A stretch of DNA of 64,000 bases from Candidatus Thorarchaeota archaeon (GTDB taxonomy: Archaea > Asgardarchaeota > Thorarchaeia > Thorarchaeales > Thorarchaeaceae), in contig RDNZ01000008.1 in assembly GCA_011364905.1 (NCBI GenBank), positions 1 to 64,000 on the forward strand, written 5' to 3'. Each line of letters opens with the position of its first letter. Within the stretch, counting starts at the first letter, position 1. The notes beneath the pieces are model-generated. The model saw only the letters and a program-made list of their open reading frames with translations. It had not been told where the DNA came from and did no database searches. The translations under genes and the position numbers were made by a program. Shown here piece by piece: positions 50,249 to 52,880 of this stretch.

Positions 50249-51490
50249 ATGCAGATTCCGGGTACAAACATTGACGTAAGTCTCAAGGTCAATCGCATAT
50301 ACGTTGCAGACCCGGCTGTAAATCGAAGACTAAAATTCGCCGGTAGGTCCTTCAAAGAAATCATGGAGGAAGTACAACGATTTACCTACTTGCGAGGATT
50401 CAACGTTCCTCTCCCAATTCTAAAGTTTATTTTGAAGAGGATAGGCCTTCCTGAAGTCGATATAATTCCTGGAGAAGATGAGCTAACAAAGGAGGATCTG
50501 CTCGAACTCTCAAGAGCGTTGAATGTTCTCGATTCACTAAAGGATGAATTTCTCTCGCCAACTGGCAAAAGTGGCATTCCCGACGATATTCAAAGCACTC
50601 TAATACGTTCCTCTCCAGAGCTTGAAGACTTGAAGATGGATGTTCCAGCTCCTCAAGAAACAAGTATTTGGGATATTCCTGCAAGCGAGGAGGTCAAAGG
50701 GTTGGTCTTTTCTTTCCATGGTGAGAATATCCCAAGCACCTCCACGCCAAGAACACAATCAGCGGATGAAAACAAATCTGTGAAATTCATATGGGATGAT
50801 CCAGAGGTAGTTGCATCATTGGAAGATGTATCTCAAGATGAGAAATCAATGCCTGAGGGCGTACCCGAAATTCTCGACCTGAAAGTCCTGTTTCTTGGCG
50901 AAGAAGGAGTCGGTGTGAACAGCATTATCTTTGAGTCAAATCTGAAGCTTGGAAACGACTATTCTTCTCTTGATTTACCCCCAACTAGACCATTCACATT
51001 CAGCAACATAATTGAGCGAAACGATGCAAATGTTAGAGTTGATGCTTGGACATTTCAGAAGAGTACTGAGGCAAAAGTTCCAAAGACGGAGTTTTACACT
51101 GGATCTGGAATTGTTGTGCTGGTTTATTCGGTGGCAGAGCGATGGAGCTTCGACAGCCTTGACTTCTGGATTCGAGAAGTTTCTAACGCCTTCCTTATAC
51201 CACCACCGATAATAGTCGTCGGAAATAAAACCGATCTCCGTGATCATCCAGTCTATGATGATGATGATGAGGTTGAAGTCCCAGTTTCAACAGAAGAAGC
51301 CCGTGAGTATTGCGAAAAAGTCGCAAAGACGCTTGGGGAAAATGGACAGTCTCATCCGCTGTTCTTCATTGAAACCTCAACAATAACGGGACAAGGAATC
51401 ACCGAGCTATTGAATAAAATCATCGACTTTTGGCAAAGCAATGAGCGCCCAAGCATGCCAGCAACCGAGCAACACGCACCAACACTCTAA
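50249..51490 (+). CDS. Ras/Rab-like small-GTPase-fold protein with N-terminal extension; degenerate G1/G3 (pseudo-GTPase)
   Basis: LKVLFLGEEGVGVNS, VLVYSV...SFDSL..W, IIVVGNKTDL, FIETST.TGQGI.EL. Start placed at ATG 50249 by alignment with the paralog. Confidence 0.85.
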   Translation: MQIPGTNIDVSLKVNRIYVADPAVNRRLKFAGRSFKEIMEEVQRFTYLRGFNVPLPILKFILKRIGLPEVDIIPGEDELTKEDLLELSRALNVLDSLKDEFLSPTGKSGIPDDIQSTLIRSSPELEDLKMDVPAPQETSIWDIPASEEVKGLVFSFHGENIPSTSTPRTQSADENKSVKFIWDDPEVVASLEDVSQDEKSMPEGVPEILDLKVLFLGEEGVGVNSIIFESNLKLGNDYSSLDLPPTRPFTFSNIIERNDANVRVDAWTFQKSTEAKVPKTEFYTGSGIVVLVYSVAERWSFDSLDFWIREVSNAFLIPPPIIVVGNKTDLRDHPVYDDDDEVEVPVSTEEAREYCEKVAKTLGENGQSHPLFFIETSTITGQGITELLNKIIDFWQSNERPSMPATEQHAPTL

Positions 51491-51568
51491 AGCTGGTTTC
51501 TTCAGGCATTGAATAGATAATCGAAGACTACATTTAATTCTCTCAACAAACAACCCCGCAAGATATCA

Positions 51569-51586
51569 GAAAAGTATTTAATATGT
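51569..51586 (+). promoter_or_regulatory. BRE/TATA-like promoter of second Ras-like gene
   Basis: GAAAAGTATTTAATATGT, matching the element at 50166. Confidence 0.5.
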
Positions 51587-51635
51587 TCAAATATTACATA
51601 ATAATTACTCTTGAGAAAGATGTGGTTGCTTAGAT

Positions 51636-52880
51636 ATGCAGATCCCCAGGACTAACATTGAGGTAACGCTCAAGACCAATGGCATCTATCTCAGAGACCC
51701 GGCTACACATCGCAGGCTGCGCATAATTGGTAGATCTTTCAAGGAAATATTGGAGGATGTGCAACGGTTTGTATATATGCGCGGATTCAAAGTTCCTCAG
51801 CCAATTATCAAATTCATCTTGAAGCGAGTAGGTCTTCCTGAAGTCGATATCATTATTGAAAAACATGAGTTGACAGACGATGACCTTCAGGAGCTTTCGA
51901 AAACTCTCGACGTTATTGATAGTCTAAAGGACGAGTTCCTCACTCCATCTTACTCTCTCAAGGCAATTGATGAAACTGATAGTGGCATTTCAGAAATACC
52001 ACAAGAACTACCAGATTTAACAGCAGACATTCCAGCGCCTCAAAAAATGAGTGTCTGGGACATTCCTGTAGACGAGGAGATCAAGGATCTTGTTTTCTCC
52101 TTCCACCCAGAGAACATATCAACAAGTGTTCCCACCCCACGAACTCAGACGTCTGCGGACGAACAACCGATGAAATTCATCTGGGATGACCCTGCAGTTG
52201 CGGCAGCCATCGCAGAAACATCCGATGACGAGCAACTATCACCTGAAGTCATTTCAGACCTGCAAGACCTGAAGGTTTTGTTCCTAGGTGAAGATGGGGT
52301 TGGTGTGAACAGCATTATCTTTGAGTGCAACCTGAAGCTCGGGAACGATTATTCATCCCTTAGTTTGCCACCTACCAATCCATTTACATACAGTAACATA
52401 ATTCAAGACGATGGAACAAGTGTTCGTGTTGATGCTTGGACATTTGAGAAAAGTATGGAAGCGAAAGTGTCAAAGACAGAGTTCTATTCAGGATCCGGCA
52501 TCATAGTACTTGTTTATTCAGTTGCTGAGAGATGGAGTTTTGATAGCCTTGATTTTTGGACTCGAGAAGTTTCCAATGCCTTCCCAATTGCACCACCTAT
52601 AATTGTGGTTGGAAATAAGACTGACCTCCGTGACCATCCAGTTTATGACGAGGAAGATGAGGTGGACATCCCAGTGTCCACGGAAGAGGCTCGTGACTAT
52701 TGCTTCAAAATGGCTATGACTCTTGGAGAAAGTGGGCGGTCTCATCCTGTGTTCTTCATTGAAACTTCAACAATTACTGGACAAGGCATTACTGAACTTT
52801 TGAAGAAGATTGTTGACTTTTGGAAAGCAAATGAACGACCAAGCATGCCTGCCACTGAGCAAGATGTCCCAACAATCTAG
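51636..52880 (+). CDS. Ras/Rab-like pseudo-GTPase, tandem paralog
   Basis: Collinear with the upstream gene; GEDGVGVNS, GNKTDL, ETST. Confidence 0.85.
   Translation: MQIPRTNIEVTLKTNGIYLRDPATHRRLRIIGRSFKEILEDVQRFVYMRGFKVPQPIIKFILKRVGLPEVDIIIEKHELTDDDLQELSKTLDVIDSLKDEFLTPSYSLKAIDETDSGISEIPQELPDLTADIPAPQKMSVWDIPVDEEIKDLVFSFHPENISTSVPTPRTQTSADEQPMKFIWDDPAVAAAIAETSDDEQLSPEVISDLQDLKVLFLGEDGVGVNSIIFECNLKLGNDYSSLSLPPTNPFTYSNIIQDDGTSVRVDAWTFEKSMEAKVSKTEFYSGSGIIVLVYSVAERWSFDSLDFWTREVSNAFPIAPPIIVVGNKTDLRDHPVYDEEDEVDIPVSTEEARDYCFKMAMTLGESGRSHPVFFIETSTITGQGITELLKKIVDFWKANERPSMPATEQDVPTI

Follow-up and report, generated by a model that had tools for sequence, protein, structure and literature searches.

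Small GTPases of the canonical Rab type (Ypt6, Ypt1, Rab1/8/11 and the Thor-Rab of SMTZ1-45; PMC10933270) share their fold with the products of two tandem genes, A and B, located in a 64,000-nucleotide stretch of DNA from a Candidatus Thorarchaeota archaeon (contig RDNZ01000008.1, positions 1 to 64,000; hereafter the window). An AlphaFold2 model of A, built on a 73-sequence alignment, was matched by Foldseek to Rab and Rho structures with a probability of 1.0, and target-normalised template modelling scores were 0.58-0.81 (most 0.63-0.81) among the matches listed. NKxD, ETSx and a core VYS..ERxSF....W..E block are shared with the canonical paralogs of the same genome. Unlike canonical Rabs, A and B have Lys16, Ser/Thr17, Asp57, Gly60 and Gln61 replaced, a 205-residue N-terminal extension (a novel domain and a motif-bearing linker), and a conserved NERPSMP tail.

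Known pseudoGTPases retain the GTPase fold, have lost catalytic motifs, are kept by selection and are presumed to bind proteins, and in these respects A and B resemble them. Rnd1-3 and the N-terminal domain of p190RhoGAP bind guanosine triphosphate (GTP) and do not hydrolyze it, and CENP-M, AAGAB and p190 pG1/pG2 bind nothing (PMC10211241, PMC12490416, PMC5593906). In AAGAB, the G-motif residues are absent and the loops equivalent to G4 and G5 are displaced (PMC12490416). A and B, whose class is read from sequence, differ in an unusual motif pattern: the phosphate and Mg2+ ligands are completely lost, as in the non-binders, yet the guanine-specificity motifs are strictly kept, as in the binders; they are also archaeal and multidomain.

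In ROCO proteins (leucine-rich repeat [LRR]-Roc-COR; LRRK2 and bacterial and archaeal Roco), a Ras-like domain is functionally coupled to LRRs, which makes them a further point of comparison. Here, the G domain is degenerate and the LRR is encoded by a separate, divergent gene on the opposite strand; no COR domain was matched by Pfam in A or B at E<=1, and membership in ROCO was rejected. SHOC2-MRAS and the pseudokinase ILK with PINCH, parvin and the LRR protein Rsu1 are analogies only, in which a scaffold of Ras-like or pseudoenzyme type is assembled with an LRR protein at a receptor or membrane site. No homology to them extends beyond the generic LRR and Ras folds. The LRR protein of the window matched SHOC2 at E~4e-14, which is generic LRR similarity, with TLR3 and LRRC32 scoring higher.

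The origins of eukaryotic signalling by small GTPases have been sought in Asgard archaea, with nearly all attention given to canonical Rab, Arf and Rag relatives. No description of the present family was found in those Asgard GTPase papers that were checked, where these canonical types are treated, and a literature search on pseudoGTPases in archaea yielded general reviews only. We consider it rather likely that A and B derive from Rab-like GTPases of Thorarchaeota, neither hydrolyze GTP nor switch, and act as protein-interaction modules.

The G domains of A and B

The two genes and their G motifs were located as follows.

50249..51490, + strand: paralog A, 413 residues, with N-terminal domain, helix, disordered linker, degenerate Rab-like G domain and conserved C-terminal tail
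51636..52880, + strand: paralog B, 414 residues, architecture as in A
50864..51439, + strand: Rab-like pseudoGTPase domain of A, residues 206-397, predicted local distance difference test score (pLDDT) ~80 over residues 208-397
50897-50923 (A, GEEGVGVNS) and 52287-52313 (B, GEDGVGVNS), + strand: G1, degenerate P-loops
51047-51064 (A, WTFQKS) and 52437-52454 (B, WTFEKS), + strand: G3 equivalents, Trp-anchored
51224-51235 (A) and 52614-52625 (B), + strand: G4 NKTD, intact
51371-51382 (A) and 52761-52772 (B), + strand: G5 ETST, intact

Both open reading frames (ORFs) are intact and 69% identical over the full length. An earlier note on this DNA had called them tandem Ras-like genes, and the frames, Pfam and the Ypt/Rab matches agreed. 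Pfam Ras (PF00071) covered only residues ~212-393 of A and B (47.7 and 48.9 bits, cut-off 21.6), Roc (PF08477) scored lower (31-32 bits, cut-off 27), and the closest solved relatives found with HMMER were Ypt6, Ypt1 and Rab proteins. The organism also has ordinary Rab-like GTPases, represented by the same-genome canonical paralogs with GDG[SA]VGKT[SA], WDLAGQ and NKxD.

In G1, HMMER aligned GEEGVGVNS of A with GEQGVGKTS of Ypt6, which places Val at Lys16 and Asn at Ser/Thr17; the alignment to the same-genome canonical paralogs (GDG[SA]VGKTS) gave identical substitutions. These had been read correctly in both genes by the note (GE[ED]GVGVNS), as had the intact G4 and G5 and the absence of a C-terminal Cys. 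Neither protein matches Walker A (GxxxxGK[S/T]). A one-residue P-loop insertion, by which the Lys or Asn would correspond to the canonical Lys16, was rejected: the S-I-L that follows aligns gap-free both with the GKQSIL found in deeper relatives and with the GMQSI of P0123. In G3, HMMER and MAFFT both anchored the alignment on the conserved Trp, with WD(T/L)AGQ corresponding to WTF[QE]KS and Asp57, Gly60 and Gln61 replaced by Thr, Lys and Ser. DxxG(Q) is absent from both proteins, as claimed earlier, but the register then given (DAWTFQ/DAWTFE) was off by three residues, and the D of DAW belongs to strand beta3, further upstream. In G2, the switch I Thr of Ypt6 aligns with Asp242; Thr246, which is invariant in the Asn clade (the clade of A and B, defined below), belongs to a segment inserted with respect to Ypt6, and members of the Lys clade lack this Thr or vary there.

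The Rab fold is thus retained while Lys16, Ser/Thr17, Asp57, Gly60 and Gln61 are all replaced. From these replacements, A and B would be unable to coordinate Mg2+, sense the gamma-phosphate or position the catalytic water. All 69 cluster representatives of the Asn clade have the same G217, G220, V221, G222, N224, S225, W267, T268, F269, N326, K327, D329, E375, S377 and T378; the lesions, being invariant in 69/69, are not due to chance.

Selection was strongly purifying, with overall dN/dS (nonsynonymous to synonymous substitution rate, omega) values of 0.05-0.11. By the Nei-Gojobori method, A versus B gave 0.11 and ortholog pairs 0.05-0.10; by region, the G domain gave 0.04-0.06 and the linker 0.16-0.31, and all these values are approximate because dS was >1 (saturated). 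The dN among B orthologs was ~2x that among A orthologs, with omega still ~0.1. Across 17 sequences, each of the nine P-loop codons had synonymous variation and none had any amino-acid change. By all these measures, selection maintains A and B, and it constrains the altered P-loop as well. Decaying pseudogenes were ruled out by the dN/dS values together with the synonymous-only variation. A and B combine a GTPase fold, loss of catalytic and Mg2+-binding residues and maintenance by selection, and in that sense they are pseudoGTPases.

Distribution and order of residue loss

A word-indexed search returned about 120 clusters of 410-440 residues, nearly all labelled Thorarchaeota. The family (family I) was present in 67/76 genomes of one taxonomic family (Thorarchaeaceae-like; GTDB-type genomes) and, at E<=1e-40, in 0/224 other Asgard genomes. 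Most genomes of that taxonomic family also encode a sister paralog group, family II (400-560 residues), in which the same N-terminal domain is joined by an acidic linker to a G domain at the C-terminus. The family II P-loop is GE..VGK[S/H/R/K/A/Q/E/G][ST], with the canonical Lys kept and full GKS in a few members (some GKSS), and its G3 is W[SC]FD[DE]A. In the source genome, the assembly covers no more of a family II gene than its N-terminus, which sits where a contig ends (L008; G000 contig C29, 31097-31330). Family II neighbours in relatives (L040-L047) are 108- and 215-residue ORFs without known function and a phosphoribosyltransferase gene, which give no functional clue.

A tree of G domains was rooted with the canonical paralogs of the same genome. 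From the outgroup (GKT[SA], WDLAGQ), a long stem of 1.5 substitutions per site leads to the superfamily, in which family II (GK-x-S, W[SC]FD[DE]A) is followed by deep family I members (GKQS, W..EGA), GMQS in one lineage, family I proper (G[VI]KS) and then sub-clades with Ser, Gly or Asn. Family I had a support of 0.999 and the Asn clade one of 0.98. Both A and B are in the Asn clade, and B, which belongs to a faster-evolving clade, arose by tandem duplication inside it.

Along this tree, position 17 reads as a change from Thr/Ser to variable residues (Q and others), then to Lys and then to Asn, with Lys16 already lost before Asn appeared. The constraint on Ser/Thr17 and the DxxGQ of G3 were lost first, then Lys16; a compensating Lys17 followed, to be exchanged later for Asn, Ser or Gly in separate sub-clades. 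Since Asn replaced a secondarily acquired Lys, it is not a lesion like that of Ras S17N. The lesions also predate the duplication, so A and B are not independent witnesses: the earlier argument from identical lesions in two ORFs to a selected pseudo-enzyme stands for selection, on the dN/dS values, the synonymous-only P-loop variation and the 69/69 invariance, but not for two independent observations. The family records the degradation of Walker A in a still-useful protein, including an apparent 'migrated' lysine. For early pseudoenzyme evolution, it means that one Asgard lineage already had a dedicated, strongly selected pseudoGTPase.

Two atypical loci were observed. In a same-genus genome, L055 (G087 contig C28), a B-type copy is not tandem to A; it has on one side a methylase-like gene, orthologous to that at window 18217-19563, and on the other the hydrolase gene with a giant of the 3981-residue type, a placement that implies rearrangement of the locus. 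In L044 (G134 contig C28, ~16967-17614), a 216-residue open frame comprises only a family I-like N-terminal domain and linker; the matching G domain, at the start of another contig, contains a TAG. Such a layout may stem from a copy that was split or broken, or from faulty assembly.

Accessory regions and conserved neighbours

Outside the G domain, A was divided as follows.

50249..50551, + strand: N-terminal domain of A, residues 1-70 (three strands and two helices), and long helix, residues 81-101
50552..50863, + strand: predicted disordered linker of A, about residues 101-205, pLDDT <50
50663-50680 (SIWDIP), from 50705 (VFSFH..EN), TPRT, and 50786-50803 (FIWDDP), + strand: near-invariant linker motifs of A
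51440..51487, + strand: C-terminal tail of A, NERPSMPAxE, without Cys, in place of a prenylation signal
50001..50248, no strand: intergenic region between the divergent LRR gene and A, A/T-rich and TATA-like at ~50170-50200 (letters read directly)

The start of A was placed at ATG 50249, which matches the conserved MQIPGT N-terminus of homologs; GTG 50210 was rejected, as homologs give it no support. The first ~205 residues of A and B matched no Pfam or NCBIfam model. Folded alone, the N-terminal domain of A reached an AlphaFold2 pLDDT of 87. Its profile was matched by no more than 43 representatives in a set of 1.84 billion clustered proteins; the domain was N-terminal in nearly all of these, and the full-length ones bear the same type of C-terminal G domain. 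Foldseek against the PDB gave nothing at E<=1e-3, the ESM Atlas gave no usable match, and the best Z in VIA wide was 6.0 (a de novo design), followed by ribosomal proteins and type III secretion system chaperones at 4-5.5, all at noise level. By these searches, the domain is confined to this lineage, and no relative of its fold was recognised; a new fold does not follow from that.

The linker motifs occur family-wide as SIWD[IV]P, [FY]SFH.EN, TPRT and FIWDDP, two of them being of the IWDxP type, with W141, P144, F156, H157, T166-R168, W182 and D183 invariant or near-invariant. Only 16 residues follow the G domain of A. In this tail, E399-P404 is near-invariant over 73 sequences, and deeper relatives retain N[ED][KR]xx[LM]P. 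The proteins end in APTL (A) and VPTI (B).

An A/T-rich stretch comparable to that before A precedes B at ~51570-51610, and A and B probably have a promoter each. The ~40 nt 5' of the two starts are alike (..gag(g)aa.g..gtggttg...agATGcagat), each after a TATA-like stretch (50170-50248, 51491-51635), which indicates that the duplication copied both the promoter and the 5' leader.

The genes next to A on its other side, all on the opposite strand, were the following.

49368..50000, - strand: LRR protein, 210 residues, cytoplasmic, Pfam LRR_8 and LRR_4, divergent from A
31543..49212, - strand: giant surface protein, 5889 residues, with signal peptide, C-terminal transmembrane segment and, in the cytoplasmic tail, a helical ..QARELP.. 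repeat; the conserved module has its ortholog as third member
19601..31546, - strand: paralogous giant, 3981 residues, transmembrane residues 3552-3572, four cytoplasmic helical repeats

The gene order in the window is giant of 3981 residues (-), giant of 5889 residues (-), LRR (-), A (+), B (+), alpha/beta hydrolase (-), aspartyl-tRNA synthetase (+), Vps22/36-like (+), Vps25 (-), Vps4 (-) and Snf7 (+), the last four being genes of the endosomal sorting complexes required for transport (ESCRT).

An LRR ortholog (E<=1e-35) stands head-to-head with a family gene, 121-463 bp apart, in 21 genomes including the window, from five genera. In same-genus genomes without the family, only LRR paralogs (E~1e-25 to 1e-31) and no ortholog were found. 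Synteny was assessed by tblastn of the window genes against 12 loci from other genomes, and the family gene was flanked by the LRR gene and an orthologous giant N-terminus in genera g1, g12, g9, g14 and g2. Giant paralogs are widespread; a close ortholog (at least ~56% identity) adjoins the LRR gene wherever the contig reaches that far, and the LRR-adjacent copy in the distant genera g9 and g2 is ~45% identical. The gene is thus inherited as a module with the divergent 210-residue LRR gene and a giant type-I surface-protein gene. The deep members of GKQS type (L051, L052, L056) are already LRR-linked, so the LRR partnership is older than the loss of the P-loop Lys. Linker motifs of the SIW type are present in all LRR-linked members and absent from family II, at whose loci neither an LRR nor a giant neighbour was found.

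The cytoplasmic tails measure ~280 residues with one repeat in the 5889-residue giant and ~410 residues with four repeats in the 3981-residue giant. The repeat unit is ~55 residues, helical, and ends in ..[QE]A[RK].[LA]P..L..(E)LL (window 19601-20830 and 31543-32400, - strand). These repeats could be docking sites for cytoplasmic partners.

Candidate roles and further genes in the window

If A and B are non-switching interaction modules, the pseudoGTPase and the LRR protein may form a cytoplasmic complex that would dock on, or regulate, the cytoplasmic tail of the giant. It would serve as an adaptor, as an anchor or in the control of assembly, and not as a switch timed by GTP. Motifs in the linker and the C-terminal tail may act as docking peptides. 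The guanine pocket may well still be occupied, weakly and without Mg2+, by a structural ligand or as a sensor, for which we see roughly even chances. Several points weigh against this picture. Synteny is co-inheritance, not physical contact, and the omega values are, as said, approximate under saturation. The strict NKxD/ETS and the glycine skeleton of the P-loop could reflect real nucleotide-dependent behaviour, in which case 'non-switching' would be too strong, and the switch-I-like segment conserved in the Asn clade, Thr246 included, could be a state-sensing surface. Fused LRR-GTPase proteins (Rosetta stone) or longer forms were not found at E<=1e-10, which is weak evidence.

The same pocket supports a rival to which we give a little less than an even chance: that A and B are guanine-nucleotide or nucleoside sensors, or are constitutively loaded, holding guanosine diphosphate, GTP or a related ligand through NKxD/ETS and the P-loop amides with neither Mg2+ nor hydrolysis, and that occupancy controls partner binding. 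NKTD, ETST, G217, G220, V221, G222 and S225 are invariant in 69/69 despite saturated synonymous sites, and Lys17 arose just after the loss of Lys16, which suggests that phosphate contact was then still selected. The nucleotide-free pseudoGTPases CENP-M, AAGAB and the pG domains of p190RhoGAP have, by comparison, lost G4 and G5. Against a sensor, the sub-clades with Asn, Ser and Gly later lost Lys17 too, the Mg2+ ligands Ser/Thr17 and Asp57 are all gone, and we know of no Ras-superfamily protein without any P-loop Lys that binds nucleotide tightly; G4 and G5 also serve the packing of the fold, and their conservation alone is no proof of ligand binding. The strict G4/G5 and the transient 'migrated' Lys would argue for some ligand binding, and the full loss of Lys in the clade of the window for weak binding or none.

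The reading put forward in the earlier note, a natural dominant negative of the Ras S17N or Rab5 S34N type that is nucleotide-poor and sequesters guanine nucleotide exchange factors (GEFs), was not borne out and is now very unlikely. It drew on the Asn at the Ser/Thr17 position, and the top Foldseek matches do include GEF-bound or nucleotide-free Rab and Rho structures (Ara7/Vps9a, Rab21/Rabex-5, Rab8/Rabin8), a weak point given nearly tied E-values. S17N-type behaviour, however, presupposes an otherwise intact GTPase (Lys16, DxxG) and a cognate GEF. Here the Asn came from a derived Lys and not from Ser/Thr, and Lys16, Asp57, Gly60 and Gln61 are also lost, which is far from a point mutant; sister sub-clades with Ser, Gly or Lys at that site share the architecture and the LRR partner, and the conserved neighbourhood has no DENN, longin, TRAPP or Vps9-type gene. 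Equally improbable is a regulator that works with the adjacent ESCRT-II, Vps4 and ESCRT-III genes in membrane remodelling. The pair does sit ~2.5 kb from Vps22/36, Vps25, Vps4 and Snf7 in the window and in 5/5 same-genus loci with enough flank, and its seat between giant receptors and ESCRT, as described earlier, is correct for the window. Across genera only the link to the giant and LRR genes is kept: among the 12 loci compared, the ESCRT block adjoins the family gene in genus g1 only, genera g12, g9, g14 and g2 keep the LRR and giant genes, their fetched flanks being free of ESCRT genes (L049-L052, L056), and the hydrolase and aspartyl-tRNA synthetase genes intervene on mixed strands. ESCRT linkage was rejected as a conserved feature, which removes a tempting but unsupported connection. 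Least probable is GTPase activity sustained by catalytic residues that have migrated or that a partner supplies; the LRR protein, for one, could then work in the manner of RanGAP, which is itself an LRR protein. The Lys did shift from 16 to 17 in the family I ancestor, and migrated catalytic residues are known in WNK1 and POMK (PMC10211241). In the clade of the window, the migrated Lys is nevertheless also gone, Gln61 has no equivalent, Asp57 and Ser17 are missing as Mg2+ ligands, and so is Gly60, which would sense the gamma-phosphate.

The reading of A and B as non-switching interaction modules makes their association with an LRR protein and a giant membrane-anchored protein a testable hypothesis on how very large surface proteins are coupled to the cytoplasm. 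A bolder version, which we hold to be rather doubtful, is a pseudoGTPase-LRR adaptor on giant adhesin-like tails whose invariant P-loop, devoid of Lys, and intact guanine pocket would bind a guanine ligand independently of Mg2+, a mode undescribed for the Ras superfamily. If true, Asgard archaea would have in it an analogue of ILK-PINCH-parvin-Rsu1 and SHOC2-MRAS, scaffolds in which pseudoenzymes and LRR proteins come together at receptor tails.

Further genes were observed towards the start of the window. A 396-residue protein (8662-9852, - strand) gave a match to the Pfam IFT52 GIFT domain (E 1.3e-16, above the cut-off) and weaker ones of the GldG/ABC_transp_aux type. At 40-8656 (+ strand), genes for a HerA-like helicase, an Mre11-like phosphoesterase and a Rad50/SMC-like ATPase stand in a row, followed by ORFs of 768 and 503 residues without a Pfam match, and this is probably a DNA end-resection operon.

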